From IMG/VR virus record IMGVR_UViG_3300037466_003065, positions 64,001 through 128,000 of that record: a stretch of 64,000 nt of DNA, one strand, 5' to 3'. Every line of letters starts with the position of its first letter. The stretch's first letter is position 1. Shown here piece after piece: positions 2,456 through 25,928 of the stretch. The translations under genes were made by a program, and so were the position numbers. The notes under the pieces were generated by a model that saw nothing but the letters and a program-made list of their open reading frames with translations, had not been told where the DNA came from and did no database searches. The stretch is from a virus.

Positions 2456-2686
2456 ATGATCACCAGCAACACCCACACCCACACCGTCAGCGTCTGCCTT
2501 CGCCAGCTCGAGACCGGCCGCGAACTTCTGCCCGACTGCGGTCGCGGCCTCGTTAAGGCCGAGGCCGAGAAGCGTAACCCGGGCGTTGCAATCGCCGCGA
2601 TCATCCTGATCTCGAGTTACGTCGACCGCGTCGCCGGCCGCATCGAGTACACCTGGGAAGTCATCCACGCCGAACAGGGGGCTTGA
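2456..2686 (+). CDS. hypothetical protein
   Basis: 76-aa ORF with AGGA upstream; packs against the next gene. Confidence 0.6.
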   Translation: MITSNTHTHTVSVCLRQLETGRELLPDCGRGLVKAEAEKRNPGVAIAAIILISSYVDRVAGRIEYTWEVIHAEQGA

Positions 2687-2688
2687 AC

Positions 2689-3336
2689 ATGCGAGTTCTT
2701 GGAGTTGACCAGTCCCTGAACGCCACAGGCTTCGTGGTGCTCGACAACGGGACGGAGATCGTGGCCCAGAAGACGTTCCTCCTGGAGAAGGAAGAAGGGG
2801 TCGCCCGGTACGCCCGGATCCACGAGGTGGCTGACAATCTCGGCGCGTGGATCGGGGATCACGATCCCGACATCGTGTGCATGGAGGATTACGCCTTCAT
2901 GGCCGCGTCGGCGTCGATCGTACCGCTGATCGAACTGGGTGGCTCCATGCGGCTCGAGGCGTATCGCCGCGGGTACCACATGTCCCGCGCCACGGTGGCC
3001 GGCGGGCATAAGGCCCTGGTCATCCAGAACCAGTCGTCCATGAAGAAGTTCATGTTCGGCAAGGGCGACACGAAGAAGGACTCGGCCTATCTGCTGAAGG
3101 TGCTCGACATCACGGGCGTCCGGTTCGCCGACGACAACGTGGCCGACGCCTTCATGCACGCCCAGCTCACCACCTTCTACGCGAAGGTCGTCAGGGGCGA
3201 GATCCTGATGTCCAGCCTGAAGCGCGAGCAGCAGCTCGTCCTGTTGGGCAAGTTCATCAAGGGGACGAAGAAGATGAGCGAGGCCAAGGCCCTCGCGATG
3301 TCCGACGAAGAGAAGGCTCAACACGCGAGGCTGTAG
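2689..3336 (+). CDS. ruvC: RuvC-like Holliday junction resolvase
   Basis: MRVLGVDQSLNATG, VCMEDY and DNVADA acidic RNase-H-fold motifs. Confidence 0.8.
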   Translation: MRVLGVDQSLNATGFVVLDNGTEIVAQKTFLLEKEEGVARYARIHEVADNLGAWIGDHDPDIVCMEDYAFMAASASIVPLIELGGSMRLEAYRRGYHMSRATVAGGHKALVIQNQSSMKKFMFGKGDTKKDSAYLLKVLDITGVRFADDNVADAFMHAQLTTFYAKVVRGEILMSSLKREQQLVLLGKFIKGTKKMSEAKALAMSDEEKAQHARL

Positions 3337-3339
3337 ACG

Positions 3340-3825
3340 GTGGCTGGCTTTCCGAAGCATGAGATCAAGTTCAAGCCGGCGATGTGTCACCCTGACAAGC
3401 CGGCTTGGGCCCGTGGCCTGTGCAAGAACTGCTACAACAAATGGCTCCTGGCCAACAACCCCGCATACAAGGCGAAGCAGCAAGAGAACACTGACAGGTG
3501 GCACAAGAAGCACCCCGAACGGGTCTCGGGCCACAAGAAGAAGTGGGAGAAGGCAAACGGTAAGGCCGCATCCCGCCGCAAGGTGCTTCAGCAATACGAC
3601 CTCACTGAGGCCGACTACCAGCGGATGCTCACAAAGCAGGGAGGCGTCTGTCAGATCTGCCTGCAGCCGCCCAAGCCTGGTAAGTCGTTACATGTCGACC
3701 ACTGCCACGAGTCGGGGCGTGTCCGGGGTCTGCTTTGTTTCCGCTGTAACTTTGGTTTGAGCTGGTTTGCCGAGTCTGCCGAACGAATGGAGCGGGCGGT
3801 CGCCCACCTGAAAGGAACATCATGA
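3340..3825 (+). CDS. recombination endonuclease VII-like (His-Me finger) endonuclease, probable homing endonuclease
   Basis: CQIC...LHVDHCHESGRVRGLLCFRCN motif; less GC-biased codons than neighbours. Confidence 0.88.
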   Translation: MAGFPKHEIKFKPAMCHPDKPAWARGLCKNCYNKWLLANNPAYKAKQQENTDRWHKKHPERVSGHKKKWEKANGKAASRRKVLQQYDLTEADYQRMLTKQGGVCQICLQPPKPGKSLHVDHCHESGRVRGLLCFRCNFGLSWFAESAERMERAVAHLKGTS

Positions 3826-4295
3826 GCGAAGTATTGAAGAGCGATAAGCCGGAGCGTGAATTTGGCACCGGCGCCATTCGCGACAACGCCGAGGGCAAGG
3901 GTCGCTTCGACCTCGTCCCTTGGACTGCGATCTGGGATTTGGCGAAGTACCAGGAGGTCGCATCGAAGCGGTACCCCTCCGACAACTGGAGGCACGGGAT
4001 CCCGCTGCGCACGTTCCTCGACTCGGCCCTGCGTCACCTGATCAAGCTGACGCTCGGCATGCAGGACGAGGATCACTGGGCGGCGGCCATGTGGAACCTC
4101 ACGTGCATGCGTGAGACCTACTACATGGTCAAGCTCGGGAAGATCCCCCAATTCGTCGACGACCCCAAGAATCCGGGCAAGCAGATCGACCTCCTCGACC
4201 TGCCGGCCTGGTTCGACATGGCGACGGTGACCAAGGACAACAGGCTGGTGCTCCGCGAGGAGCCGAAACTGCCAGCGGGCAGCCCGCCTCTGTAA
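3822..4295 (+). CDS. dATP/dGTP diphosphohydrolase domain protein (DUF5664-like)
   Basis: GKGRFDLVP...RYPSDNWRHG...LDSALRHL...DHWAAAMWN pattern. Confidence 0.8.
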   Translation: MSEVLKSDKPEREFGTGAIRDNAEGKGRFDLVPWTAIWDLAKYQEVASKRYPSDNWRHGIPLRTFLDSALRHLIKLTLGMQDEDHWAAAMWNLTCMRETYYMVKLGKIPQFVDDPKNPGKQIDLLDLPAWFDMATVTKDNRLVLREEPKLPAGSPPL

Positions 4296-4740: not shown

Positions 4741-6135
4741 TTGAAAGTGTCAACGCTCAGCCCGACCAAGCTCGAGACCGCCCGCCTCTGCGAGGCCCGC
4801 CTCGCGGCCAAGATGCACGACGAGGAGTACGAGGAGGAGCAGGGTTCCGGTGCCCTGATCGGCGTCCTCGCCCATGGCGCCGCCAAGAACTGGTACCGCT
4901 ACTGCTACTACACCAACCCGGAGACGGGCAAGATCGTCACCGGCGAGCCCAAGCCCACGGACGTCCGCGTCCCCGTCAACACCCCGGACGAGGCGTTCGA
5001 GGCCGCCATGCAGGAGTGTGCGGAGTCCGTCGACTTCGACGGCAACCCGGCCAGCCAACTCCCGAAGGAGCCCAACGACGTCATCGAGGCCCGGACGATG
5101 TTCGACATGATCATCGCCAACTACAACCGGGACGTCGTGAAGGTGCTGTACGCCGAACGCCGGTACAAGGGCCACCTGTCCAACGGCGTGCCGATCCACA
5201 CGATCATCGACCTGATCCTCGACCGCGGCAACGGCGTGATCGAGGTGGTCGACTTCAAGACCGGGTTCATCACCTGCACCGAGGACGAGATGATGAACAA
5301 GGATCAGGTTCTGATGAACCTGGTCGTCCTCAACCAGGATCAAGACCTCGCCCGCTTCCCGCACAAGCAGTTCACCTACTTCTGGGTGCGGAAGGGCTTC
5401 CAGACCGGGCCGGTCAGCATGCCGGTCGAGCGGCTGAAGGACTACGAGCTGTTCCTGCTCTACGAGTACCAGCGGCTGCTGAACATCCAGGAGCCGAAGG
5501 AGTCGATCAACCGCTTCTGCGGGAGCTGCGGGCGCCGGCACAAGTGCCAGAAGTTCGCCGACTTCGTCGCCGAGGCCCTCGGCAAGCCCAAGGAGCTGAC
5601 CCCGGAGGAGGCGGCCGCCGTCGACGACGAGACCCTGCTCTCCCAGAGCGACCTGCTCAAGGGCCAGATCCAGTTGCTGGAGTCCCGCCGCGAGGCGATC
5701 GGCGAGGTCATCAAGCTGCGGATGAAGAACGCCAACGTCAAGGAGATCGTCGGCGACAAGTTCAAGGTGCGGCTGCAGCAGAACATCTCGACCAGCTACA
5801 GCTACACGACCGTCGCGAGGCTGTGTAACGAGCGGAACGTCAACCTTGGCGACCTCGTGTCGCTCAGCAAGTCGAAGGTCGAGGCGGCGTTCAGCTCGGA
5901 CGCCGATGCCATGGCCGCCCTAACCCAGACGATGCAGAAGTTTTCGACTGCACCGTTCATCGTTGTCTCGCCGAAGAGTGCTGCGAAGCGTACGGCGGCG
6001 ACGGCTAAGGCGGCCCTCGACGGCAGCCAGCCCGCCAAGCCGCGGGCCCCGCGCAAGCAGAAGGCCGACCCGGCACCCCAGTCGGTGGCCGAGGCGTCGG
6101 TCGCCCCGCCGCCCGACGACACCCCTGCACTCTAA
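4741..6135 (+). CDS. PD-(D/E)XK Cas4/RecB-like exonuclease
   Basis: SPTKLET..C N-terminus, IDLI...VVDFKTG nuclease motif, C-terminal CGSCGRRHKC cysteine cluster. Confidence 0.82.
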   Translation: MKVSTLSPTKLETARLCEARLAAKMHDEEYEEEQGSGALIGVLAHGAAKNWYRYCYYTNPETGKIVTGEPKPTDVRVPVNTPDEAFEAAMQECAESVDFDGNPASQLPKEPNDVIEARTMFDMIIANYNRDVVKVLYAERRYKGHLSNGVPIHTIIDLILDRGNGVIEVVDFKTGFITCTEDEMMNKDQVLMNLVVLNQDQDLARFPHKQFTYFWVRKGFQTGPVSMPVERLKDYELFLLYEYQRLLNIQEPKESINRFCGSCGRRHKCQKFADFVAEALGKPKELTPEEAAAVDDETLLSQSDLLKGQIQLLESRREAIGEVIKLRMKNANVKEIVGDKFKVRLQQNISTSYSYTTVARLCNERNVNLGDLVSLSKSKVEAAFSSDADAMAALTQTMQKFSTAPFIVVSPKSAAKRTAATAKAALDGSQPAKPRAPRKQKADPAPQSVAEASVAPPPDDTPAL

Positions 6136-6147
6136 GGAAGGACTCAC

Positions 6148-7557
6148 ATGAACAGCTTGTACCGCCGCACGCGGGTGCTGCTCGTGTCCGATCATCCCGC
6201 CCTCGACACCGGCTTCGGCCGGGTGATCAAGGAGATCGGCACGGGCCTCGCCCTCAGCGACCAGTTCGAGGTCGCCCAGCTCGCGTGGTTCCCGCAGTGG
6301 GCCAACCGCGACCGCATGATCCCGTACCGCATCTTCCCCACCGGCCAGGTCGGCACGATCGCCGAGCGTCAGGCCGACAGCTACGGCCAGGTCAGCTTCG
6401 ACAAGGTCGTCGCCGAGTTCCAGCCCGACGTCGTCCTCACGCTGGGCGACGTCCACTGGGTCGACCACATCGCCCGCCGGCCCCGCAGCCATAAGCTGGT
6501 CGGGTACATCCCGGTCGACTGCGGGCCGATCCCCAAGAGCTGGATGCGGACGCTGGCGGCCTTCGACGAGGTCGTCGCGTTCGGGAAGTTCGGCGCCCAG
6601 CAGATCTGGGCCCACGATCCGGGCAAGCTCCTCAAGATCATCCCTCACGGGTGCGACGCCGACACGTTCAAGCCGCTGCGGGGCAAGCCCAACCCGGCCC
6701 GCGAGGCGATCGCCGGCCCGTTCAAGTTCGTGGTCGGCACGGTCGCCCGGAACACGGGCCGCAAGAACCTCCCTCGCCTCCTGAAGGCGTTCAAGAAGTT
6801 CATCAGTCGATACGGCGTCTGCGAGAACTGTGAGACCGTCAACTTCCTCGAGCCCGACCAGCGTGAGTGTTCGTGCAGCAACTGTGGCGGCAATCACTTT
6901 GCCTGGGGCCCGGGCAAGGATGACGCCTTCCTCTACCTGCACACGGTGGCAAAGGACTCGGCCGGCTACGACCTGCACGCCCTGATCGACCGCCTCGGCC
7001 TCAAGGGACGCGTCGGGATCCCGGACGGCATGGAGGTGGGGCAGGGCGTCCCGGACGACGAGCTGAACCTGATCTACAACGCGATGGACGTCTTCACCCT
7101 TCCCACGATGGGTGAAGGCTGGGGCCTGCCGATCGCAGAGGCCATGGCCGCCGGCCGGCCCGTGCTGGTCACCAACTACTCCGGACACATGGAGTTCGTG
7201 CAGGACGCCGGCTCGACGATCGACGTCGCGGAGTTCGAGACCAGCACGACCCACGGGGGCGAGTTCGCCCTGGTCGACATCAACGACTACGTGATGAAGC
7301 TCGACCAGCTCTACTACGATTCGGACTCGTTCTGGACGAAGTGGGGCCGGCACCTGATGGCCGGCGGCGTCCCCGAGGAGGCCAAGTCGCAGTTCATCAC
7401 CGGCGACCCGCTCCGGCTCGAGCTGGGCAACCGTGCCCGCGGGAAGATGCTCGACTACCGCTGGAACCTGATCGTCGCCCAGTGGGCGAGTCTCCTGAGC
7501 AGCCTGGTGGGCACGAAGCCCACCGTCGCCGACATGCTCGGCATGGAGGAAATGTGA
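6148..7557 (+). CDS. glycosyltransferase family 4 (GT-B) with inserted Cys-rich segment
   Basis: IPHG, VARNTGRKN, DVFTLPTMGEGWGLPIAEAMAAGRPV motifs; CENC...CSNC insert. Confidence 0.9.
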   Translation: MNSLYRRTRVLLVSDHPALDTGFGRVIKEIGTGLALSDQFEVAQLAWFPQWANRDRMIPYRIFPTGQVGTIAERQADSYGQVSFDKVVAEFQPDVVLTLGDVHWVDHIARRPRSHKLVGYIPVDCGPIPKSWMRTLAAFDEVVAFGKFGAQQIWAHDPGKLLKIIPHGCDADTFKPLRGKPNPAREAIAGPFKFVVGTVARNTGRKNLPRLLKAFKKFISRYGVCENCETVNFLEPDQRECSCSNCGGNHFAWGPGKDDAFLYLHTVAKDSAGYDLHALIDRLGLKGRVGIPDGMEVGQGVPDDELNLIYNAMDVFTLPTMGEGWGLPIAEAMAAGRPVLVTNYSGHMEFVQDAGSTIDVAEFETSTTHGGEFALVDINDYVMKLDQLYYDSDSFWTKWGRHLMAGGVPEEAKSQFITGDPLRLELGNRARGKMLDYRWNLIVAQWASLLSSLVGTKPTVADMLGMEEM

Positions 7558-8696
7558 GCCACAGCCGCAACATCATCTGGCGGGGCGCCGCCACCGACCC
7601 GTCCGGGTACGGGGAGGCCACCCGCAACTACGTCCTGGGCCTCGCCGACGCGGCGGCCGTCAAGCTGCAGAACGAATCGTTCTTCAAGGGGCAGCCCTGC
7701 CTGAACCACTGGGCCACGCTGGAGCGGTTGCGTCGGACGCGCGTCGACAACGACAAGCCCCACACCTACGTGCAGCACCTGACCCCCGAGAACTACGTCA
7801 CCCTCCCCGGCCAGCACGTCTACCACGTCGGCATGACGACGTTCGAGACCGACCGGATCCCCGACCAGTGGCGCACGCCGATGCGGGCGATGGACGAGAT
7901 CTGGACGCACAGCACGTGGGGCAAGACCGTCTTCGAGGAGCAGGGCATCCGCAACGTTAAGGTCGTCCCCCACGGGGTCGACACGAAGCGGTTCACCCCG
8001 GAGGGGCCCGCGCTCGGCGTGATCGAGGAGAGCGGCCTTGGTCGCTCATTCCTGTTCGGCTCCAACTTCGACTGGACGGAGCGGAAGAACCCGCGGGCCC
8101 TGCTCCGGGCCTTCCTCGGCGAGTTTGGGCCGGACGACGACGCCGCCCTGGTGATCAAGTCGTACCATCAGTTCCCCCTCGAGCGGTCGCGGGCCTACAT
8201 CCGCGGCTACATCGAGTCGGTGCGAAAAGAGTTGGGTAAACGAAAAGGCGACTCCGCGCCGATCTATGTCATCAGCGACATGCTGGACGGCGAAGACCTG
8301 CCCAGCTTCTACCGGTCGCTCGACGCGTACGTCCTCCCGACGCGCGGCGAGGGCTGGGGCCTGACGTACAGCGAGGCCATGGCGTGTGCGGTGCCGACGA
8401 TTGGTACGGGATGGGGTGGCAACACCCAGTTCATGAACACGCGGAACAGCGTCCTGCTCAGTTCCAAGTTGGTGCCGATCACCGCCGAGCAGGCGGGGCC
8501 CCAGCGACAGTACGCGGGACACCGGTGGGCCGAAGTGGACGTCGACGAGCTGCGTGTGGTCATGCGGAAGCTCTACGAGAGCAACTCGCTGGCCCAGTTC
8601 GGTGCGGTCGCCCGCGGTGACATGGTCAAGTATTTCAGTTGGGAGAACGCCTGCGTCCAGGCAATCGACGCGCTCGAGTTCGACGTCGCCTTCTAG
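7554..8696 (+). CDS. glycosyltransferase family 4 (GT-B)
   Basis: GTG start overlapping the previous stop (GTGA); SGYG, VPHGVD, ERKN, DAYVLPTRGEGWGLTYSEAMA motifs. Confidence 0.9.
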   Translation: MSHSRNIIWRGAATDPSGYGEATRNYVLGLADAAAVKLQNESFFKGQPCLNHWATLERLRRTRVDNDKPHTYVQHLTPENYVTLPGQHVYHVGMTTFETDRIPDQWRTPMRAMDEIWTHSTWGKTVFEEQGIRNVKVVPHGVDTKRFTPEGPALGVIEESGLGRSFLFGSNFDWTERKNPRALLRAFLGEFGPDDDAALVIKSYHQFPLERSRAYIRGYIESVRKELGKRKGDSAPIYVISDMLDGEDLPSFYRSLDAYVLPTRGEGWGLTYSEAMACAVPTIGTGWGGNTQFMNTRNSVLLSSKLVPITAEQAGPQRQYAGHRWAEVDVDELRVVMRKLYESNSLAQFGAVARGDMVKYFSWENACVQAIDALEFDVAF

Positions 8697-8703
8697 GAGA
8701 ACC

Positions 8704-9372
8704 GTGAGACGTACAAAGGACAACAGCAAGGAGCCGCTGGTCGAACTCGACCCCGGCAAGATGGTGGGGATGTTCGGGGTGAACTGGCGACAGTTGCCCA
8801 TGGTCTACGCGAGTTGCAACCTGCAGGGGACGCACGAGCAGCGCCAGCGGACGTACGACGGCCACTTCCGCATCGCCACGGAGCTGTGCCCCTTGGGCAT
8901 CCTGCTCTCCCCGCTCCGCAGCAACGGGGCCCTGGAGATCTGCGACGGCAGGGTCGGCAGCACCAGCCCGCTGAACTCCCTCACGCGGCCCGAGATCAGG
9001 GCACGAGACCTCAAGGACGTCGCCCGTTCCCGCGTCGTGATGCTCGACCTCGAAGCCCACGAGATCGAGTACGACGTGCTCGAGCGCGAGGATCGGATCG
9101 GTGCCACTCCCAAGGAGCACCGCCTGATCCGGGCCGGCTCGCCGCCCGGTTACCAGGCCAAGGTGCTCGGCCAGGTCACGATGCCCGCTCCGTTCACGGG
9201 CAGCGTCGTCGAGTGTTACGAGGCTTACCGGCTGGGCATCCCGGTCGTCGCGTACAACGCCCCCAAGCGAACCCCTCAAAGCTACTCGCCCTGGTTCGGG
9301 GACTTCTTCACCAAGGTGCTCGACACCGAGAAGGACGCGATCGAGTACGTCCGGCGTAACTGGCTGGTGTAA
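8704..9372 (+). CDS. nucleoside 2-deoxyribosyltransferase / nucleotide N-glycosidase-like protein
   Basis: AGGAGA + GTG start; D(V)ARSRVV and TGSVVECYEAYRLGIPVVAY resemble the NDT-family D..ad.v / GT..E.g.A...gkpv motifs. Confidence 0.5.
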   Translation: MRRTKDNSKEPLVELDPGKMVGMFGVNWRQLPMVYASCNLQGTHEQRQRTYDGHFRIATELCPLGILLSPLRSNGALEICDGRVGSTSPLNSLTRPEIRARDLKDVARSRVVMLDLEAHEIEYDVLEREDRIGATPKEHRLIRAGSPPGYQAKVLGQVTMPAPFTGSVVECYEAYRLGIPVVAYNAPKRTPQSYSPWFGDFFTKVLDTEKDAIEYVRRNWLV

Positions 9373-9404
9373 AGAACCACCCTCGTTCGGTCGATCATTT
9401 CACC

Positions 9405-9983
9405 ATGCTCAACATGGTGAAATCATTGATTGACGAGGGTCTCTCTTTGGCTCAAATCGGGGAGCGTGTTGGCTGGCACTATCTGAAGGTTTATCGCTTT
9501 CTCAACGAGCACGGGCTCAAGACCAAGCATCGTCGCAAGGCTCGCACCCTCCCTTCTCGCAATCGCCCCCACCTATGTGAGTGTGGCGAGTCAGACCCGT
9601 CTCGCTTCAGCAGGAAGAACAAAACCGTCTGCATGGCATGCGTCCAGGCTGCGGTACGTGTACGGGTTAAGCAGCTTCGCCGGCAGATGATCGATTTTCT
9701 TGGGGGGCAATGCTGCCTGTGCGAGTTCAGCTTGTACCCATCCGCGCTCCATATCCACCATTTCGATCCAGCGATCAAAGATCCGCGGCTAAAAAAGGAC
9801 GGGGATGCGTGGCTTAGTTGGCGATGGGAGCGAGTTGAGGTTGAGCTGAGAAAGTGCGTCCTTTTGTGTGCCAACTGTCATGCGGGGGTTACTTGGGATG
9901 GCGCTATTGTCCCCCCGAATAAAATGCCACCTCACCTCTTGTACTCGAATTTAATCCCGGGTACATTACCTACCCATAAGTGA
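9405..9983 (+). CDS. HNH endonuclease with N-terminal HTH, probable mobile homing endonuclease
   Basis: CCLC...LHIHHFDP...CVLLCANCH; visibly more A/T-rich than flanks. Confidence 0.85.
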   Translation: MLNMVKSLIDEGLSLAQIGERVGWHYLKVYRFLNEHGLKTKHRRKARTLPSRNRPHLCECGESDPSRFSRKNKTVCMACVQAAVRVRVKQLRRQMIDFLGGQCCLCEFSLYPSALHIHHFDPAIKDPRLKKDGDAWLSWRWERVEVELRKCVLLCANCHAGVTWDGAIVPPNKMPPHLLYSNLIPGTLPTHK

Positions 9984-9993
9984 GTCTGATCCC

Positions 9994-10593
9994 ATGAATA
10001 ATCCCACCACCAAGAGCTTTGAGGACTGGCGGCGGGAGTTGGACGGGGCGTACCCACCGGGTCGCCTCGTCCACTCCTACGGGGGAGACCACCCGAACAT
10101 CCTGATCGTGGGGTACAAGGCCGTCCGCGGCGAACAGCACCCGTTCCAGACGTCCCCGGGCATCAGGGTGGTCGAGGGCCTCGTCCGCCTCGGCGTGCCC
10201 CCGGCGGCCGTCCGGATCGGCTACCTGTTCCGCGACCACGAGGCGCCGAACGACGATAAGGCGTGTACCAAGCTGTGGGTCAAGGAGCTCATGGAGGAGA
10301 TCGACATCCTCAAGCCCCGGGCCGTCCTCCTGCTCGGCAAGCGGGTGGCCGACACCATCCTCGGCGTCAACGACAACGACATCGACAAGTACCGCCGCAC
10401 CCGGTTCGCCACCAAGCCGCTGGGGGTCAACTTCATGGTGACCTACTCGCCGGAGGAGCTGGCGGCCGCCGGCGACTGGGACACCGAGACCTCCAAGACG
10501 TTCATGGAAGACCTCTTCGCCCTGGTCACCGTGAACGAGAAGCACTACCCAAACCTGATCCTGCTCGCCCCGGCCAAGGAGGGGATGAAGTAA
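9994..10593 (+). CDS. uracil-DNA glycosylase family-4-like fold protein (degenerate motifs)
   Basis: LIVG, ACTKLWVKEL.EEIDILKPRAVLLLGKRVA..ILG and VTYSP match the family-4 UDG core; canonical GE(A/G)PG and HPA motifs absent. Confidence 0.65.
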   Translation: MNNPTTKSFEDWRRELDGAYPPGRLVHSYGGDHPNILIVGYKAVRGEQHPFQTSPGIRVVEGLVRLGVPPAAVRIGYLFRDHEAPNDDKACTKLWVKELMEEIDILKPRAVLLLGKRVADTILGVNDNDIDKYRRTRFATKPLGVNFMVTYSPEELAAAGDWDTETSKTFMEDLFALVTVNEKHYPNLILLAPAKEGMK

Positions 10594-12071
10594 TGCCCAA
10601 GGCACCCGACATCCAGTTCCTCGACGACGCGGCCCACGTCGCCGCCCGCAAGTACATCGTCGAGCAGTTCCCCGGCGTCGTCGGCGTCAAGCTGAAGCAG
10701 GACGACGGCAGTCCGTGGCTGGTCAACCCGTCCAACAACACGACGTACAACGTCGCGGTCGGCATGCCCCAGCAGGATCCCCGCATCCTGACCGTAGCCT
10801 TCCTCGCCGGCGCCCTGCCGCGGTTCGGCCGGGTCGGTTCGGTCTGGTACGGCCTGCTCAACCCAGCCACCTCCCAACTCCACCTGATCACGACGGCCGA
10901 CCTGACGGCCCTGATGAACAACTGGCAGGCGACGGCCGGCGGGGTGACGGTGACCCAGAACGGCGAGTACCTGATGTTCCACCTGAACGTCGCGTACCTC
11001 CAGGACACCAACAAGATCCGCAAGACGTTCACGCTGGGCAAGGGCGACGACAGCTTCGACATGTTCCGCCGGCTCGACGGGGCCACGGACGACGGCTTCT
11101 GCCACCTGCACGCCCACTCGATGTACTCCCTGCTCGACGGGGCCACCTCGATCGAGGGCATGGCCCGGGCGGCGGCCCTGAACGGCCAGAAGGCGATGGC
11201 CCTGACCGACCACGGGGTCATGTTCGGCACGTGGAAGTTCTACAAGGCGTGCCGGGAGTGGGGCGTCAAGCCCCTGCTCGGCGTCGAGGCGTACGTCGTC
11301 GACGACCTGCACGACGGGTACCGCACCGCGGACGGCACCAAGGCCCGGTTCGAACACCACATGGGCATGGTGGCCATGAACGACGAGGGCTGGGGGAACC
11401 TCTGCCAGATGATGTCGGAGGCCAGCCGGGACTGGTTCCACTACGTCCCCCGGATCGGGCACGAGCTGATCCGGAAGTACAACAAGGGCATCATCTTCTT
11501 CACCGGCTGCTTTAAGGGTCTCGCCCCCTGGTACTGCCAGGACTTCGACCCGCCGCCCGCCGACATGCCTACCGGTCAGCACAAGTGGTGGTTCAAGAAG
11601 GATCTCGACCGGGCCTTCCGCTACCTCCAGTTCTACAAGGAGATGCTCGGCGACCGCCTGTACGGCGAGGTCATGAACATCGACTTCGAGCGGTACATGC
11701 GGTGCGTTCCGACGCTCCGCGAGATGTACGCCAAGCTCGGGATCAAGGAGTTCATGTCGAACGACTGCCACTACGAGACGGCCGAGGAGTCGATCGTCCA
11801 GGCCCTCGCGTCCCGCATCAACAACACGAAGGTCGACGAGCTGGGGGACAAGTTCACGAAGCAGGGCTGCTACTTCATCAAGTCGGTGGCCGAGATGAAG
11901 GCCGACTGGACGAGCCCGAATTTGTTCAGCACGACCATGGAGGTTGCCGAACGTTGCAACATCGACTGGTCGCCGAAGAAGGGGGAATCGAAGTATTTGT
12001 TCCCACGATTCCCAGTCGAAGACGATGTCGATTGGCAAGAGTTCTTGCAGAGCGAAGGAGCACGCCAGTGA
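10593..12071 (+). CDS. dnaE: DnaE N-terminal half: ~165-aa unknown domain fused to the PHP domain of DNA polymerase III alpha
   Basis: HLHAHSMYSLLDG, LTDHG, GVEAY, FTGC, SNDCHY PHP motifs; ends YLFPRFP..., where the DnaE palm normally begins. Confidence 0.9.
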   Translation: MPKAPDIQFLDDAAHVAARKYIVEQFPGVVGVKLKQDDGSPWLVNPSNNTTYNVAVGMPQQDPRILTVAFLAGALPRFGRVGSVWYGLLNPATSQLHLITTADLTALMNNWQATAGGVTVTQNGEYLMFHLNVAYLQDTNKIRKTFTLGKGDDSFDMFRRLDGATDDGFCHLHAHSMYSLLDGATSIEGMARAAALNGQKAMALTDHGVMFGTWKFYKACREWGVKPLLGVEAYVVDDLHDGYRTADGTKARFEHHMGMVAMNDEGWGNLCQMMSEASRDWFHYVPRIGHELIRKYNKGIIFFTGCFKGLAPWYCQDFDPPPADMPTGQHKWWFKKDLDRAFRYLQFYKEMLGDRLYGEVMNIDFERYMRCVPTLREMYAKLGIKEFMSNDCHYETAEESIVQALASRINNTKVDELGDKFTKQGCYFIKSVAEMKADWTSPNLFSTTMEVAERCNIDWSPKKGESKYLFPRFPVEDDVDWQEFLQSEGARQ

Positions 12072-12751
12072 ATCACATCGACCTCAATCGTATTGCCACG
12101 TCGTATCGTCCGATCCACCTGAACGTCCCGGATCACGCCAGCTTCCAGAACGAGCACGAGCCCCACGCCTTCAACGGCCTGGTGCAGCAGACCCTGAAGT
12201 GCGCGAACTTCAAGGACTGGAAGAACCGGATGACCCACCTCCAGATCTCCGAGCGTGATCTGAGCAACCCGCCGCCGACGCCCCGCTACCTCGAGATCGG
12301 GACGTACCGCGGGTGCAGCCTGGTGCAGGTCTTCGCGATGTGCCCGGGCATGGAGCTGCACACGCTGAACATCCTCCCCGAGCAGGCCCGGGACAAGACG
12401 ATCGAACTGCTCCCGAAGGAGGAGATCGGTCTCGCCGCACGTCAGCAGGGGATCGCGTTCACCCAGCACTACGGCGACAGCAAGGAGTTCGACTTCTCCG
12501 AGCTGGGCGAGTTCGACGTCATCTTCATCGACGGCTGTCACGAGCCAAGCTACGTCAAGTACGACGCCGTCACCGGCCGAAACCTGCTCTCGCCGGGCGG
12601 TGTCCTGATTTTCCACGACTACCACGACCGAAACGAGATCGGTCGCGGGGTCATGAAGATGCTCGACTACCTCAACTCCGGAGCCCTCTTCGACGGCCAA
12701 CTCCAGCACATCGAAGGCACCTCCCTCGTGTACTGGAGGAAGCCGCTGTGA
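12068..12751 (+). CDS. class I SAM-dependent methyltransferase (Methyltransf_24-like)
   Basis: YLEIGTYRGCS; FDVIFIDGCH...PGGVLIFHDY; GTGA overlap with the PHP gene stop. Confidence 0.88.
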   Translation: MNHIDLNRIATSYRPIHLNVPDHASFQNEHEPHAFNGLVQQTLKCANFKDWKNRMTHLQISERDLSNPPPTPRYLEIGTYRGCSLVQVFAMCPGMELHTLNILPEQARDKTIELLPKEEIGLAARQQGIAFTQHYGDSKEFDFSELGEFDVIFIDGCHEPSYVKYDAVTGRNLLSPGGVLIFHDYHDRNEIGRGVMKMLDYLNSGALFDGQLQHIEGTSLVYWRKPL

Positions 12752-12936
12752 AGCTGGTTACCCACTCCTTCAGCAAGCCGTGGATCAAGCTGTGCTGGGC
12801 CCTGTACTGGCCCGACAAGTACCGAGTCTTCCGCGTGACCTGGTGGCTCCTCGGCTTCATCCCCTTCTGGACTGGCGTCTACGCAACCCCCGACCAGACC
12901 GGCGTCGCAGACGCCCCCATCGACGAGTACACCTGA
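12748..12936 (+). CDS. small hypothetical protein (W-rich)
   Basis: GTGA-coupled 62-aa ORF. Confidence 0.5.
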   Translation: MKLVTHSFSKPWIKLCWALYWPDKYRVFRVTWWLLGFIPFWTGVYATPDQTGVADAPIDEYT

Positions 12937-13124
12937 TGCGAGACCTTCACGACGACGACTACACCCCACCGCCCGAACCCGAAAACATCATGGAACTGGA
13001 CGAGAACGAGCGGATCATCCTCGGCCGCTATCGCCAGTGCGGCAGGGTAAGCACGGAAATCGCCAAGCTCTTCAACGACCTCGCAGCGAGCTACTCCAAT
13101 GAGAATCCTGATCGCCCGACATAA
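12936..13124 (+). CDS. small hypothetical protein
   Basis: TGATG-coupled 62-aa ORF. Confidence 0.5.
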   Translation: MRDLHDDDYTPPPEPENIMELDENERIILGRYRQCGRVSTEIAKLFNDLAASYSNENPDRPT

Positions 13125-13872
13125 CGGCCTCGGTGATATGGTGATGCTGTTCCCGTTCATCGGGACGTACCTCGCCGCCGGCCACCAGGTGACGGTGGAG
13201 ACCCACCCGCGGAACCATGAGTTCCTCCGTTGGGTCTTCCCCTCGGTTCAGACTCTAGCCTGCACGTGCGACCCCTACACTGACTTCCGCCAGCGACAGC
13301 ACGGGTTCGACGTGCTCCTCAACTACAACCGGCTCGAGCTCATTGACGGGTTGTACCGGGATCTCGGCTTGCCCGCCCTCAACTGGCAGTTGCAGTGCTT
13401 AGCAATCGCACTGCAGGCCGGTCTGCCTCGGGTCGCCGACCTGTCGCCCAGCGCGTACGTCGACTACCCGGTCAAGAAGGTCAGGGGGTCGGTGATGGTC
13501 TTCACGCGGTCGACCCATCACTCCCGCACCATGGGCCCGAGCGTCGTCGATCAGCTCCGCCAGAAGTACCCCAACGCCACGATCGACCCGGAGTACGAGA
13601 CCCAGGTCGGCCTCGCCGAACACATCGCCCACGCCGACCTCGTGATCGGCATGGACAGCGGTGCGATCCATGTGGCCGAGGCGTTCAAGACGCGGTGGGT
13701 CTGCCTGCACACGACGTTCGACGAGGCGTCCCGACACCAGTTCTACAAGCACGGCGTCTGCCACCAGTCCGATCACACCTCCTCGCCCTGTTACGCCCAC
13801 GACGGGTGCGGCTTCTGCGGCGGGGCGTGTCCGAGCGAGTTCAACATCAAGGAGCTCAGTAATGGCCAATGA
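13099..13872 (+). CDS. glycosyltransferase family 9 (heptosyltransferase-like)
   Basis: RILIARHNGLGDMVM N-terminal motif and ADLVIGMDSGAIHVA C-terminal motif. Confidence 0.85.
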   Translation: MRILIARHNGLGDMVMLFPFIGTYLAAGHQVTVETHPRNHEFLRWVFPSVQTLACTCDPYTDFRQRQHGFDVLLNYNRLELIDGLYRDLGLPALNWQLQCLAIALQAGLPRVADLSPSAYVDYPVKKVRGSVMVFTRSTHHSRTMGPSVVDQLRQKYPNATIDPEYETQVGLAEHIAHADLVIGMDSGAIHVAEAFKTRWVCLHTTFDEASRHQFYKHGVCHQSDHTSSPCYAHDGCGFCGGACPSEFNIKELSNGQ

Positions 13873-14422
13873 GGCAAAGAAGGTTCTGTCCCGCGTCGAG
13901 AAGATGGTCAGCAAGGGCAAGGTCGTAGACCTCGGCTGCGGCCCCTTCAAGATCCACCCCAACGCGATCGGCGTCGACCCGGGCGGGTACGAGGGAATCG
14001 AGTCGCAGTCCTCGCTCGAGTACCTGAAGGCCCTGCCCGACAACAGCGTCGACGTGGTCTTCAGCTCGCACTACTTCGAGCACGAGCGGGAGATCGCCGA
14101 AGTCCTCGGCCACGTCACCCGCACCCTCAAGCCGGACGGCAAGCTAATCGCCTACCTGCCCAACCGCCTGGCTTACAAGGGCGCCGACGGGAACGACCCG
14201 AACGGCGACCACGTGAACCACTGGACGGCCGGCGAGTTCGCCGACCTGATCCTCGCGGTCACACCACTCGTCATCCTGTCCATCGAGAACCGCGTTGACG
14301 GCGTCCCGCCGAACCACGCGTTCACCGGCAACGGCGAGACCGAGCACCCCGACACCGGCAAGTGGGAGTACAGCTTCCTCGTCATCGCCCGCAAGCCCAA
14401 GCCCTCGGAGGTGGCGAAGTGA
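13862..14422 (+). CDS. class I SAM-dependent methyltransferase (Methyltransf_11-like)
   Basis: VVDLGCG; SVDVVFSSHYFEH; LKPDGKL. Confidence 0.88.
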   Translation: MANEAKKVLSRVEKMVSKGKVVDLGCGPFKIHPNAIGVDPGGYEGIESQSSLEYLKALPDNSVDVVFSSHYFEHEREIAEVLGHVTRTLKPDGKLIAYLPNRLAYKGADGNDPNGDHVNHWTAGEFADLILAVTPLVILSIENRVDGVPPNHAFTGNGETEHPDTGKWEYSFLVIARKPKPSEVAK

Positions 14423-14778
14423 TCTTCACCCTCCCCCTCTGGTTCCTCGCCTGCCACATGGTCGGCGACTACATCTTCCAGACCGACGACATGGCGGCCA
14501 AGAAGATGAGCTGCCCACAAGTGCGGACGAAGCACGTGATCTGGTACCTCGTCCCGTTCGCGATGACGGCGCCGCGGTTCATCTTCCTCCTGCACGGCCA
14601 CGGCCTCGACGCCTGGTACCGGTACCTCATGTTCCTGTTCACCCTCGGCCTGATGCACTGGATCACGGACATGCGGCGGTGGGCGTCCGGCGAGAAGTGG
14701 TGTGCGAAGCCCATCATGGTCGATCAGACCTTGCACGTGCTCCAGATCTCGCTCTGTACCTCCTGGTTCATCTGCTAA
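14419..14778 (+). CDS. DUF3307-like membrane protein
   Basis: HMVGDYIFQT...K, HWITD and DQTLH motifs with hydrophobic segments. Confidence 0.8.
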   Translation: MIFTLPLWFLACHMVGDYIFQTDDMAAKKMSCPQVRTKHVIWYLVPFAMTAPRFIFLLHGHGLDAWYRYLMFLFTLGLMHWITDMRRWASGEKWCAKPIMVDQTLHVLQISLCTSWFIC

Positions 14779-14815
14779 CAGGTGCCGGACGGTGGCAAGC
14801 CGCCCGGAACCCATC

Positions 14816-17299
14816 ATGACCCACGACCCCGACCAACTGAACCGATTCTTGAAGTACAAGGTCATTAAAGGGTTCCGGGAAGCCGGCCTCCCGATGACCC
14901 AGCCCTACCTCGAGCGCATCGACTTCGAGCTGGGCATCATCAAGCAGATGGGCTTCGACCAATACTTCTTGATCGTGGCCGACCTGTGTCGGTTCATGCG
15001 GTCGAAGAAGATCAAGTTCCTCGTCCGCGGCTCGGGTTGCGGAAGCTGTGTCGTCTGGGGGCTTCGGATCTCGCACAAGTGGCTCGACCCGATCCAGTAC
15101 GGCCTCCCGTTCGAACGCTTCCTCAACCCGAGCCGGGTGACGATGCCCGACTTGGACATCGACATCCAGGACGACCGGCGGCACGAGGTCGTCACGTACA
15201 CGCTGGAGAAGTACGGCCGCGACCGGGTCGCCCGCATCATTACGTTCGGCACCATGGGCGCCAAGGTGGCGATCGCCGACACCTGCCGGGCCCTGCAGAT
15301 CGAGAACTACCAGGAGGTGGCGGCCAAGATCACCGCCCTGATCCCCGCCGGCAAGGGCGAGGACGGGAAAAACATCCGCATCGCCGACGAGCTGAAGCGG
15401 AACGAGGCACTGCGTGAGCAGCAGAAGCTGTACCCGCAGGTCTTCGAGATGGCCCAGAAGATCGAGGGCAAGGTGCGGCACGCGTCGATCCACGCGGCCG
15501 GCATCATCATCGCCCCCGACGTGATCACGAAGTACGCCCCGCTGTTCTTCAAGGGCAACCCGGACAACCGCTCCGAGGAGGACAACTTCCCCACGATCCA
15601 GTGGGACATGTACGACGCGGAAGAACGCGGCATGTTGAAGATGGACTTCCTCGGGCTCAAGACGCTCCGGGTCATCGACCAGACCGAGCGGCAGATCCGG
15701 GAGGTGCAGAAGGCCCGCGGCGAGGCGCCGACCTTCGACATCGACGAGATCGACCGGTACGACGACCCGGCCTGGCGGGTACTGGCGGCCGGGCAGACGG
15801 CCGGCGTGTTCCAGATCGAGCGGGGGTTCGTCCGCAACTTCGCCCGCCGCATGTCCCTGATGCGGAAAGACCCGTGGCAGCTCGCCATCCTGATCTCCAT
15901 CATCCGCCCCGGCATGATGGACACCGGCGCCACCGAGGAGTACCTCAAGCGTGCCTCCGGGAAGTCGGCCCCCACCCCGCTCGACGCCCTACTGGAGGAG
16001 ACCCTCAGGGGCAACTTCGGCCTGTTCGTGTTCCAGGAGGACTGCATGTGGGCGGCCGTGCGGATGGCCGGCCTCAGCCTGTCGAAGGCCGACGAGCTGC
16101 GTCGCGCGATCGGCAAGAAGAAGCCCAAGGACATGGCGGCGATCAAGCCCGAGTTCATCCAGGGCTGCATCAAGAACGGGGCGACGTTGGAGCGGGCCGA
16201 GTTCGTCTGGCAGAACATGGAGACGTTCGGCCGCTACGGGTTCAACAACGCCCACGCGGCGGCCTACGGGATGGTCGGCTCGTACCAGACGGCCTACCTC
16301 AAGGCCAACTGGCCCGTCCTGTACATGACGAACTTGATCAACTCCGAAGCCGGGGTGGGCAACAAGGACGACGGCTACAACTGCAAGGTCGCCGAGTACG
16401 TCGAGGAGTCCCGCATGATGGGCCTCAAGGTGCTCAAGCCGTGCGTCCTGAAGTCGCAGGCGATGTGCCACCCGGTGTGGCCCAACCAGATCCGCTTCGG
16501 CCTGTCGCTGGTCAAGAAGGTCAGCTCGGGCGCCGTCGCCTGGGTGGGCCAGAAGTGCCGAGACGCCGTGAGCCTGAAGGACTTCATGCTCAAGTCCCTG
16601 TCGATCGAGCTGAACGAACGAAACGAGGAGAGACCCCATGTCATGGTTGGGAAGGGAGACTTGGAAGGACTGGCCCTCTCCGGCGCTCTGGACGTGTTTG
16701 AGGGTAACCGCAGCCGCATCCTCGCGATGCTTCCGACTCTACAGGAGCTTGCGAAGGGGTTTCATGAACAGTCTTGCAAGGTTCGGGCCGGCAAAGGCGC
16801 TCGCATGCGCAAGACGCCGGAGGCGGTTATGCAGACGCTGGAGGCGTACCGGATCGAGGACGACGACATTCCGAACGAGATGACCCTCGAGCGCCAGCTC
16901 GAGCGTGAGCGGGAGGTGACCGGCTGCTACCTCTCCGACTCCCCGTTCACCCCGTACAAGTCGGCGATCGACCAATGGGTCACCTGCACGGTTGGCGAGA
17001 TTCTACAGGGGCACGCCGAACAGCCGATGATCTTCGTGGCCGTCCTGACCAAGTTCCGCGAGATTGTGGTCAAGAACGGCAAGAACGCCGGCCAGACCAT
17101 GGCCATCATGCAGTGGGGCGGCGTCGACGGCGACGTCGAGACCGCTGCTTTCAGCCGCCAGTGGGCCGACATCAAGGCCAAGCCGGGCGGCGTCGAGAAG
17201 GGCAAGGTCTACTTGGTTATGGTGACGCCGGATCGTGACGGCGTGCGGGTGAACATCAAGGATATTTTGAGGTTGAGCAACTGCGGCTACGCCGACTGA
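14816..17299 (+). CDS. dnaE: DnaE C-terminal part: palm, thumb, fingers, HhH and OB domains of DNA polymerase III alpha
   Basis: GFDQYFLIV, RGSGCGS, FERFLNP, PDLDID (catalytic), HAAG, KMDFLGL, YGFNNAHAAAY and C-terminal OB fold; lacks PHP. Confidence 0.95.
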   Translation: MTHDPDQLNRFLKYKVIKGFREAGLPMTQPYLERIDFELGIIKQMGFDQYFLIVADLCRFMRSKKIKFLVRGSGCGSCVVWGLRISHKWLDPIQYGLPFERFLNPSRVTMPDLDIDIQDDRRHEVVTYTLEKYGRDRVARIITFGTMGAKVAIADTCRALQIENYQEVAAKITALIPAGKGEDGKNIRIADELKRNEALREQQKLYPQVFEMAQKIEGKVRHASIHAAGIIIAPDVITKYAPLFFKGNPDNRSEEDNFPTIQWDMYDAEERGMLKMDFLGLKTLRVIDQTERQIREVQKARGEAPTFDIDEIDRYDDPAWRVLAAGQTAGVFQIERGFVRNFARRMSLMRKDPWQLAILISIIRPGMMDTGATEEYLKRASGKSAPTPLDALLEETLRGNFGLFVFQEDCMWAAVRMAGLSLSKADELRRAIGKKKPKDMAAIKPEFIQGCIKNGATLERAEFVWQNMETFGRYGFNNAHAAAYGMVGSYQTAYLKANWPVLYMTNLINSEAGVGNKDDGYNCKVAEYVEESRMMGLKVLKPCVLKSQAMCHPVWPNQIRFGLSLVKKVSSGAVAWVGQKCRDAVSLKDFMLKSLSIELNERNEERPHVMVGKGDLEGLALSGALDVFEGNRSRILAMLPTLQELAKGFHEQSCKVRAGKGARMRKTPEAVMQTLEAYRIEDDDIPNEMTLERQLEREREVTGCYLSDSPFTPYKSAIDQWVTCTVGEILQGHAEQPMIFVAVLTKFREIVVKNGKNAGQTMAIMQWGGVDGDVETAAFSRQWADIKAKPGGVEKGKVYLVMVTPDRDGVRVNIKDILRLSNCGYAD

Positions 17300-25142: not shown

Positions 25143-25928
25143 ATGAGCAAGATGTCGAATTACCTCGAGAACCTGATCATCGAGCGCCATTTGCGCGGCG
25201 GGGCGTTCACGCCTCCCGCGACGGTGTATCTCGCACTGGCCTCGGGGATCACGGCCGGTGGCGACGGCGACCCCACCGCCTTCAGCGAAGTCTCGACGAC
25301 CAGCACGGGGTATGGTCGTCAGGCGATCACGTTCGGTGCGGCCTCCGGCGGTGCCGCCAGCAACAGCGTTGCGATCTCCTTCAGCCCCGCGACCGCCGAC
25401 TGGGCGTCGGGCTCGAACCTCACGCACTGGGCCATCTACGACGCCTCCACCGGCGGCAACATGCTCTACTGGGGCACCGTCCCCACGCCGGGCACCGTCC
25501 TGAGTGGCGAGACGTTCACCGTCGACGTCGGCAACATCACGGTTACCCTCTCCGGCAACTGGACGACCACCTTCATGAACCAGATCCTGGACGCGACCCT
25601 GCGTGCCCAGGCCCTTCCCGCCCCCACGATCCGCGTCGCCCTGCTCACCGCCTTTACCAACGACTCAACGTTCACCGAGTGCCCGGACAGCAACTACGCC
25701 CGCCTCACGACCACGTGGGGCGCGTCCTCGAACGGCCAGTCCCTGAACGCGGTCGACATCGCGTATGCCGCGATGAACGCCCAGCAGGTGATCACGCACG
25801 TCGCCCTGTTCGATGCGGCGACCGCCGGCAACATGAGCTACCGCGGCCCGCTCGCGGCCAGCAAGACCGTGGGCGCCGGCAAGGTGCTCAAGTTCCTGTC
25901 CGGCCAGTTGTCGATCAACGCTCAGTAA
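25143..25928 (+). CDS. tail/structural protein made of two tandem copies of one domain
   Basis: Both halves follow ...VYLAL/IRVAL...GYGRQAITF/NYARLTTTW...THWAIYDA/THVALFDA.T.GNM pattern. Confidence 0.75.
   Translation: MSKMSNYLENLIIERHLRGGAFTPPATVYLALASGITAGGDGDPTAFSEVSTTSTGYGRQAITFGAASGGAASNSVAISFSPATADWASGSNLTHWAIYDASTGGNMLYWGTVPTPGTVLSGETFTVDVGNITVTLSGNWTTTFMNQILDATLRAQALPAPTIRVALLTAFTNDSTFTECPDSNYARLTTTWGASSNGQSLNAVDIAYAAMNAQQVITHVALFDAATAGNMSYRGPLAASKTVGAGKVLKFLSGQLSINAQ

Follow-up and report, generated by a model that had tools for sequence, protein, structure and literature searches.

A conserved glycosyltransferase pair in the replication operon of a large environmental phage, with virion proteins as its possible target

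What does a phage glycosylate with sugar-transferring enzymes that it keeps among its replication genes? The question is raised by a 64,000-nucleotide stretch of virus DNA (hereafter the window), which covers bases 64001-128000 of a 184,787-bp IMG/VR virus record (G000; complete according to CheckV, 64% GC). Here, genes for glycosyltransferases (GTs) and methyltransferases are interleaved with those for primase, single-stranded DNA-binding protein (SSB) and a split DnaE polymerase. A preliminary description of positions 6148-14778 had proposed a pathway of glycosylation and methylation that acts on either DNA or the virion. We found that two GT4 enzymes, GT4a and GT4b, together with the PD-(D/E)XK nuclease gene in front of them, are a conserved core of the replication module and that the remaining cluster genes are swappable cargo, an arrangement that is new here. 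To our knowledge, phage cassettes of glycosyltransferase and methyltransferase genes are common in metagenomes, and their targets are known only for T-even-type DNA and for a few mycobacteriophage virions. The conserved pair in the replication operon sets this cassette apart from the capsid-linked ones.

Genes were called from a frame plot of GC content at third codon positions (GC3) combined with a scan for start codons, and families were assigned with Pfam and PHROGs; window coordinates given below are on the plus strand. The two GT4 enzymes, the nucleoside deoxyribosyltransferase (NDT)-like and uracil-DNA glycosylase (UDG)-like proteins, the GT9 (here as a GT9-like protein), the two methyltransferases and the DUF3307 protein that had been listed for positions 6148-14778 were all recovered by Pfam, PHROGs or AlphaFold2 (AF2) modeling, although an HNH homing endonuclease gene (9405-9983; PHROG 2255, 3.1e-17) had been missed. 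The description of co-oriented and mostly coupled genes around a split DnaE also held. An uninterrupted run of plus-strand genes crosses the replication operon, and its junctions within 6148-14778 are mostly stop-to-start overlaps of 1-26 nt, otherwise gaps of at most 32 nt. Primase (271-1452) and SSB (1458-2333; both Pfam/PHROGs) do belong to this co-oriented operon, but they lie upstream of the segment to which they had been assigned. In the first 20 kb of the window we found no promoter-like site on the plus strand, and the few terminator-like matches on that strand were not above chance.

GT4a (6148-7557; PF00534, 3.8e-14) is a soluble, retaining GT-B glycosyltransferase, and the gene for GT4b, a second soluble GT4 (7554-8696; PF13692, 1.7e-10), is translationally coupled to it through a GTGA overlap. 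Their Pfam bit scores were 53 and 41.8, respectively, against cut-offs of 26-27 (Glycos_transf_1 and Glyco_trans_1_4). The AF2 model of GT4a (pLDDT 93.7) has the two-Rossmann GT-B fold, and its best Foldseek match was the chlorovirus protein B736L of NY-2A (3oy2; E 4e-21, TMt 0.78, 17% identical), followed by sucrose-phosphate synthase, MshA, methylmannose-polysaccharide mannosyltransferase, BshA and PglA. GlgM and WaaG were likewise among the structural matches, and the top 50 were GT-B enzymes, mostly of family GT4. The EX7E motif of GT4a corresponds to E323/E331, of which E331 is invariant across 42 sequences, and GT4b retains both the EX7E (GEGWGL...SEAMA; GEGWGLTYSEAMA) and the RKN motifs. 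GT4a also carries a CxxC...CxxC zinc-ribbon insert at approximately residues 222-250 that is confined to the phage clade, cellular homologs being without it; judged by the secondary structure, this insert occupies a helix-to-strand loop, which would put it away from the catalytic cleft. No transmembrane segment was found in GT4a, GT4b, the GT9-like protein or the Methyltransf_24 protein.

Relatives of this phage were reached via homologs of GT4a, and co-occurrence was assessed on IMG/VR records. Homologs 39-54% identical to GT4a were found on contigs of 125-185 kb in a lineage whose GC content ranges from 29% to 65%: this phage and the relatives L002, L005 and L099 lie at 60-65%, and L004 (= L018), a complete relative with terminal repeats, at 29%. 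GT4b is 40-48% identical in L002, L004 and L005 and invariably directly follows GT4a, while the PD-(D/E)XK (RecB/Cas4-like) nuclease gene (4741-6135 in the window; PF12705, 1.1e-10) lies directly upstream of GT4a in L002, L004, L005, L099 and two ENA contigs. The gene order of the relatives reads RecA...DnaB, DnaG, SSB-like, RuvC...PD-(D/E)XK, GT4a, GT4b, a variable segment, PHP, a second variable segment and the DnaE core. Across the same relatives, identities were 23-43% for primase, 23-41% for PD-(D/E)XK, 34-40% for PHP and 41-57% for DnaE. Judged by these identities, the GT4 pair appears to be as old and as conserved as the primase, PD-(D/E)XK, PHP and DnaE proteins that surround it. Megablast of the stretch against cultured phages returned no match, nor did an IMG/VR single-protein search with the PHP protein. 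One irregularity concerns GT4b in two sister samples: L003 is identical to L002 over 11.7 kb, and from GT4b onward the identity drops to approximately 88% with many indels. GT4b in L003 is not one open frame, for which strain variation or mixing, a real loss of the gene or faulty assembly where the contig ends are possible explanations.

The hosts of these phages belong to different phyla. The sigma-28 factor of G000 (41989-42864 of the record, minus strand; L011:1989-2864) is 60-67% identical to FliA of metagenome-assembled genomes of Tepidisphaeraceae and other Phycisphaerae, and this match points to a planctomycete host. A low-GC relative was binned with Melioribacteraceae. The pair is present in phages whose hosts are planctomycetes, low-GC bacteria (probably Ignavibacteriota) and, at a greater distance, Bacteroidota. 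Since the pair is conserved across hosts of different phyla, its acceptor should be either borne by the phage or universal.

The genes around the pair behave differently, and the conservation that had been expected of the whole cluster is confined to GT4a-GT4b. By comparison with the relatives, the GT9-like gene, both methyltransferase genes, the DUF3307 gene and the NDT-like gene appear to be variable cargo. The relatives fill the two gaps, from GT4b to PHP and from PHP to the DnaE core, with Methyltransf_11, _23, _25 and _24 genes, GT2, GT34-like and extra GT4 genes, as well as MazG, NUDIX, NT5C, DNMK-like, DUF4326, integrase, RNase T and helicase genes; FkbM methyltransferase and NDP-sugar genes also belong to the cargo of relatives. 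Hypervariable sugar-tailoring genes around the pair are a pattern typical of a surface engaged in an arms race.

Within this cargo, the GT9-like gene (13099-13872; PF01075, 28.3 bits against a cut-off of 22) encodes a short protein of 257 aa whose family match spans only the 43 residues 171-213; its N-terminal sequence is MRILIARHNGLGD. Against PDB sequences it gave no match as a single sequence, and a profile gave chance matches only. Only three homologs were found (43-49% identity), and in every case a Methyltransf_11 gene comes next. A C-terminal knuckle of the form C-x2-H-x2-C-x2-C (C231, H234, C237, C240) is invariant in this family and is probably a metal site; we know of no such knuckle in WaaC/WaaF. 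The order GT9-Methyltransf_11 occurs in the window (Methyltransf_11 at 13862-14422; PF08241, 9.8e-9), and likewise in L098 and L099. In the window and in L099, the unit occupies the interval from PHP to the DnaE core; it follows DnaE beside a Gp80 fibre gene in L002, and adjoins a Gp80 fibre gene in L098. These positions suggest that the GT9-like gene and Methyltransf_11 form a mobile two-gene unit. GT4+GT9 fusion proteins exist (P0034, P0035, P0048), which ties the GT9-like step to the GT4 step. The second methyltransferase (12068-12751; Methyltransf_24, PF13578, 1e-13) has a 51% identical ortholog in L002, and its family recurs near GT4a-like genes elsewhere. Both are class I S-adenosylmethionine (SAM) methyltransferases, and in neither was a [DNS]PP[YFW] motif found, as the preliminary description had stated. 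The DUF3307 membrane protein (14419-14778; PF11750, 1.9e-9; PHROG 2470 'membrane protein', 6.8e-14) has a hydrophobic segment at residues 40-58, and our literature search for DUF3307 found no functional account.

What, then, is the acceptor? We consider it a tentative best answer, at a probability of roughly 45%, that these soluble enzymes decorate virion proteins with a methylated oligosaccharide. Gene content, intact catalytic motifs, the GT-B fold, solubility, synteny, conservation and the variability of the cargo are observed, while the acceptor, the sugar donors, the sequence of reactions and the role in the biology of the phage are inferred as follows. The cluster would be a cytoplasmic glycosylation system of two layers, an ancient and conserved one formed by the translationally coupled GT4a and GT4b behind the PD-(D/E)XK nuclease, and a swappable one formed by the GT9-like enzyme with Methyltransf_11, Methyltransf_24, DUF3307 and the small open reading frames (ORFs) between and around the two DnaE genes. 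GT4a and GT4b would transfer the first sugars from host nucleotide-sugars directly onto a phage-encoded cytoplasmic acceptor, most likely at least one virion protein of the capsid, tail or fibre. The GT9-like enzyme would then lengthen the chain, the two methyltransferases would O-methylate the glycan, and the particle would end up coated with methylated glycans specific to the lineage. The multi-step methylated-glycan pathway that had been suggested for the locus fits the three glycosyltransferases, the intact EX7E of the GT4 enzymes, the two methyltransferases of non-DNA type and the NDP-sugar genes of relatives. Direct transfer in the cytoplasm fits because the enzymes are without transmembrane segments and no gene for a lipid carrier, flippase or ligase was seen in the cluster.

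Virion proteins are favored as the acceptor by relatives of the pair that lie in head modules and by a GT4::GT9 fusion near a capsid gene. We examined the two ORFs on either side of GT4a-like genes at 37 non-redundant IMG/VR loci (150 proteins). By Pfam, these neighbors comprised 7 capsid, 4 prohead protease, 4 BppU_N and 1 gp3 packaging protein versus 4 replication/recombination proteins; with PHROGs, 6 were major head proteins, 4 were head proteases, 4 were head-tail adaptors and 1 was a large terminase. By chance, a capsid gene would be expected beside the GT4a-like gene at about 2 of the 37 loci, a rough estimate and not a measured background. In Synechococcus phage S-CBS4 the order is portal-GT4-GT-MT-...-protease-capsid (MT, methyltransferase), and in L006 a capsid gene and a 119-aa gene precede the GT4::GT9 fusion. 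Distant GT4a relatives in smaller phages are thus mainly found beside capsid, prohead-protease and adaptor genes. Fibre genes count in favor of virion proteins as well: the GT9-Methyltransf_11 unit of L098 adjoins a Gp80 fibre gene, and in the window fibre-like genes come soon after the cluster on the same strand.

The same choice of acceptor is favored by the mycobacteriophage precedent, by the structural match to a chlorovirus enzyme and by the fact that the enzymes are soluble. The capsid of chloroviruses bears glycans that include methylated sugars. B736L is likewise a virus-encoded cytoplasmic GT4 enzyme, but it belongs to a eukaryotic virus and its own acceptor is not established. In Cluster O mycobacteriophages, an O-methyltransferase and three glycosyltransferases modify the capsid and the tail tube (Freeman et al. 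2023, cited in PMC11600133). Mycobacteriophage virion glycosylation, of the Corndog type in Cluster O and in Che8, has in common with the present system soluble phage glycosyltransferases together with a SAM O-methyltransferase. The mycobacteriophage genes are not necessarily in the structural operon, and glycosylation there is presumed to act directly on proteins in the cytoplasm, as here. The two systems differ in host phylum, and the present one, known from its genes alone, has a zinc-ribbon GT4 pair fixed in the replication operon. If the target is the virion, glycosylation of the particle would be ancestral in a whole lineage of large environmental phages, with consequences for the stability of the particle, its adsorption and its recognition.

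Several observations weigh against this assignment. A glycoprotein has been demonstrated in no phage that carries the GT4a-GT4b pair, and in this lineage the pair is located in the replication/recombination module, not among the virion genes. The head-module census rests on relatives that are 23-32% identical to GT4a, with a background that is estimated only. No sequence homology to the mycobacteriophage enzymes was detected: when 50,697 phage records were searched by tblastn with GT4a, Methyltransf_24 and GT9, no match came from a mycobacteriophage. The candidate capsid protein (176838-177764 of G000) has no Ser/Thr-rich C-terminal tail, and the virion proteins examined for such acceptor tails showed only scattered Ser/Thr-rich tracts (g184, g187 and the 1091-aa protein at 26689-29964), which are not decisive. 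Finally, DUF3307 is a membrane protein and would suit a target in the envelope better.

Such an envelope target is the alternative that survives best, although we regard it as unlikely. Here, the GT4 enzymes and the GT9-like protein would alter the lipopolysaccharide (LPS) core or another surface glycan at the cytoplasmic face of the inner membrane and thereby block superinfection or the sticking of progeny to debris, with the methyltransferases capping the new sugars. GT4 with GT9 is the pairing of LPS core assembly: WaaG (GT4) and WaaC/WaaF (GT9) show the same CAZy combination, are soluble or peripheral and use nucleotide-sugars. WaaG is among the structural matches of GT4a, and a distant counterpart of GT4b in a cultured Flavobacterium phage (gp180 of immuto_2-6A, described below) is annotated RfaG. 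Every known or likely host is a diderm, the DUF3307 product is a membrane protein, and the variable cargo would be in keeping with an arms race in which receptors are at stake. For jumbo phages, clusters of glycosyltransferase genes have also been read as modifying surface polysaccharides to pre-empt other phages (Iyer et al. 2021, PMC7824862). The pair, however, stays 39-54% identical across host phyla and from 29% to 65% GC, and envelope acceptors differ between such hosts. Its distant relatives lie within head operons of small phages rather than at moron or lysogeny positions, and the cluster has no flippase, ligase or polyprenyl-phosphate transferase gene. In contrast to WaaC/WaaF, the GT9-like protein is short, matches its family over 43 residues and has no lipid A-core context.

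The other half of the original proposal was hypermodification of DNA, with the GT4 pair glycosylating a base and the accessory enzymes extending and methylating the sugar as protection from restriction or CRISPR. The location of the pair speaks for this. It stays between genes for a recombination nuclease and the DNA polymerase; in L073 it lies beside primase, MazZ, PHP and DnaE, and in L020 it follows ERF and RusA. The same slots hold genes of the nucleotide pool (MazZ-like, NDT/DNPH1-like, MazG, NUDIX, DNMK-like and NT5C). Known phage DNA glycosyltransferases with a GT-B fold, which attach a variety of sugars, are similar to MshA and BshA of family GT4 (bioRxiv 10.1101/2023.12.21.572611). 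Known systems, namely T4 alpha/beta-GT, the 5mYOX- and ThyS-linked GT-A/GT-B clusters (bioRxiv 10.1101/2023.12.21.572611) and the arabinosyl-5hoC of RB69/DLP3 (PMC13326640), use GT4-like GT-B enzymes as here, and they likewise lie near genes for DNA polymerase, helicase and nucleases with extra glycosyltransferases and sugar-modifying genes. These systems, however, always include an enzyme that makes the acceptor hydroxyl, since every phage base known to be glycosylated owes its hydroxyl to a ThyA homolog or to a C5-methyltransferase plus a TET-type dioxygenase (PMC13326640; bioRxiv 10.1101/2023.12.21.572611). Neither G000 nor its complete relative G001 has one: G000 gave no match to PurZ (PF00709), the ThyA family (PF00303) or TET/JBP (PF12851), and G001 none to the ThyA family (PF00303) or TET/JBP (PF12851), where the TET/JBP negatives are weak because that search had no positive control above cut-off. 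A ThyA-family gene was present in 5 of 30 records with GT4a-like genes, and G000 has ThyX.

A search of the rest of the genome, which the preliminary description had proposed, thus found no hydroxymethylase, TET/JBP or PurZ, but it did find DpdA. The statement that the window holds no Que gene is true; the DpdA gene lies 2.1 kb past its end (130152-131135 of G000, minus strand; L013:2152-3135; PF23859, 5.3e-67) and encodes a protein with a C-terminal zinc ribbon. The tRNA-guanine transglycosylase (TGT) model PF01702 missed it, and it was found when we scanned the neighbors of a C5 methyltransferase gene. Because PF01702 missed DpdA, little weight can be put on a single negative profile, including that for TET/JBP. 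From its gene content, the phage probably puts 7-deazaguanine into its own DNA, and since QueC and QueD are absent from G000, the base would be made by the host. The complete relative G001 has the pair but no DpdA, and a further 29 records with GT4a-like genes are also without DpdA, so the partner of the conserved pair is not DpdA. Glycosylated queuosine occurs in tRNA. By this analogy we considered a 7-deazaguanine as the acceptor of the glycosyltransferases and rejected it as their general function, given the absence of DpdA from G001 and the 29 records. A Z-genome reading prompted by the MazZ-like gene was rejected as well, there being no PF00709 match to PurZ. The C5 cytosine DNA methyltransferase itself (136644-137957 of G000, minus strand; L013:8644-9957; PF00145, 1e-31) has an N-terminal SymE-toxin-like (AbrB-fold) segment (PF08845, 1e-8). 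Given DpdA and this methyltransferase, some kind of modification of the G000 DNA is probable.

A cultured phage with the same layout provides further evidence on DNA. The Flavobacterium phage immuto_2-6A has the gene order PD-(D/E)XK-gp181-gp180-GT2-WecE-MT and more, in which the best match of gp181 is the GT4a type and that of gp180 the GT4b type (23-27% identity); its other glycosyltransferases match neither type. The order of nuclease, GT4a type and GT4b type followed by GT2, methyltransferase, aminotransferase and epimerase cargo is thus the same as in our lineage. The differences are the low identity, the absence of the zinc ribbon from gp181 and a family A polymerase in place of the split DnaE. 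In a targeted study of its virion DNA by liquid chromatography with ultraviolet and tandem mass spectrometric detection (LC-UV-MS/MS), dA, dC and dT were seen together with a 324-Da fdPreQ1 peak that replaces dG, and no glycosylated nucleoside was reported (bioRxiv 10.1101/2023.04.13.536721). We take this composition as evidence against bulk DNA glycosylation, short of proof given the low identity and the targeted design of that study. Our search of the literature on the glycosyltransferases of immuto_2-6A found nothing useful. Structure and charge of GT4a may point in the same direction, in that T4 beta-GT is not within its top 50 structural matches and that GT4a (pI 5.9) and its orthologs (pI 5.6-7.5) are mildly acidic. 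DNA is therefore disfavored on three counts: the search for an acceptor-making enzyme was negative, DpdA does not travel with the pair, and fdPreQ1 is the one non-canonical nucleoside reported for immuto_2-6A. Hypermodification of DNA, as the preliminary description had framed it, is weakened to the point of being improbable, while the virion half of its proposal is better supported than the DNA half but not shown. With its layout and published DNA composition, immuto_2-6A makes the acceptor question directly testable.

Two further readings are weaker still. It is very doubtful that the pair acts on a phage protein outside the virion, such as a factor of replication or recombination, or that it makes a small-molecule glycoside: the top structural matches do include the small-molecule GT4 enzymes sucrose-phosphate synthase, MshA, BshA and GlgM, and the pair is translationally linked to replication genes, but such a function is without phage precedent, the variable extra glycosyltransferase, methyltransferase and amino-sugar genes suggest an oligosaccharide rather than a single glycoside, and the head-module placement of relatives would be left unexplained. 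Hardly any weight, finally, is given to replication-coupled glycosylation of DNA that dispenses with a hydroxymethyl or hydroxy pyrimidine and uses a canonical base, a DpdA-inserted 7-deazaguanine derivative or another new acceptor, and equally little to its corollary that the GT9-like enzyme and the methyltransferases build a methylated oligosaccharide on DNA and that the immuto peaks conceal adducts of low stoichiometry or nuclease resistance.

Beyond this lineage, the GT4a-GT4b pair recurs in other large phages. L020 (158 kb, 35% GC) has ERF, RusA and the pair, then an FkbM methyltransferase and a sugar nucleotidyltransferase; L030 (128 kb, 38% GC) has an intein-bearing GT9 and the pair, then GT2, a sugar dehydratase/epimerase and a DegT aminotransferase. 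The GT9 gene of L030 (7790-9916), directly upstream of GT4a-GT4b, is split by an intein with a LAGLIDADG endonuclease (PF01075, PF14890, PF14528). Inteins are unusual in glycosyltransferases. Actin-like genes lie a few kb from the GT4 pair in both phages (L020:16895-17914, ALP/Alp7A-type; L030:6716-7771, Volactin).

Three further genes of the operon are read as separate nucleotide or replisome accessories that stand outside the glycan pathway. The first encodes the 222-aa NDT-like protein (8704-9372), for which we found no Pfam match (E <= 0.01, including PF05014 and PF15891), no PHROG match and no PDB sequence match; a word-indexed search found only the query itself, and full HMMER over 1.8 billion representatives gave 9 distant homologs. 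Its conserved residues are D102, T165-G166 and E170, with a T-G-T-x-x-E motif. Across 10 sequences E170, a candidate for the catalytic Glu, is invariant, and D102, a candidate for the Asp of the substrate pocket, is nearly so. By ESM features the protein is nearest to viral PF05014 clusters (score 0.94), of whose members 17-75% carry PF05014. Its AF2 model (pLDDT 77.6) matched human DNPH1/Rcl (8rpt; Foldseek E 9e-5, TMt 0.63) as well as bacterial NDTs (6evs, 7o62); for DNPH1 and NDTs together, E was 1e-4 to 1e-3 and TMt 0.6-0.7. The earlier call of an NDT- or N-glycosidase-like protein is thereby supported at the level of the fold, and the product is probably a (deoxy)nucleotide N-glycosidase or transferase. 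Since relatives are without this gene, it is an accessory. The second, a MazZ-like dATP/dGTP diphosphohydrolase (dGTP_diPhyd_N; 3822-4295; PF18909, 4.3e-15), lies just upstream of the cluster, where the preliminary description had placed it; homologs occur in the same module of a 179-kb ENA relative and of L073, and it is variable cargo of the replication module. The third, a UDG-superfamily (family-4-like) protein (9994-10593; PF03167, 1.8e-7), weakly matches the T. thermophilus UDG 1ui0, and its orthologs in the 179-kb ENA contig and L002 are conserved beside PHP. The HNH homing endonuclease gene is inserted in the operon between the NDT-like and UDG-like genes and has a GC3 below that of its neighbors.

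The remaining genes of the operon complete the arrangement. RuvC (2683-3336) and endonuclease VII (3340-3825), both assigned by Pfam/PHROGs, follow SSB. Two small ORFs of 62 aa each lie between Methyltransf_24 and the GT9-like gene. The first (12748-12936) encodes an aromatic, hydrophobic protein and is called from its high-GC3 frame and a GTGA overlap with the Methyltransf_24 gene, with no family match in Pfam or PHROGs; the second (12936-13124) would encode an acidic protein, has no Pfam match and is an uncertain gene called from frame and start only. Fibre-like genes with Mtd_N (19801-21270) and Gp80 (25143-25928) lie within 5-10 kb after the cluster. The split DnaE consists of a PHP-domain protein as its N-terminal part (10593-12071; PF02811, 3.9e-34) and of the polymerase core as its second part (14792-17299; PF07733, 7.8e-73; PF17657; PF14579). 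PHP is a gene separate from the DnaE core in all relatives, so the split is conserved lineage-wide. Approximately 170 N-terminal residues of the PHP protein in the window are without assignment. In the low-GC relatives (L004:14674-16485 and a 124-kb ENA contig), the PHP gene encodes about 600 aa and begins with a cpYpsA (SLOG) domain.

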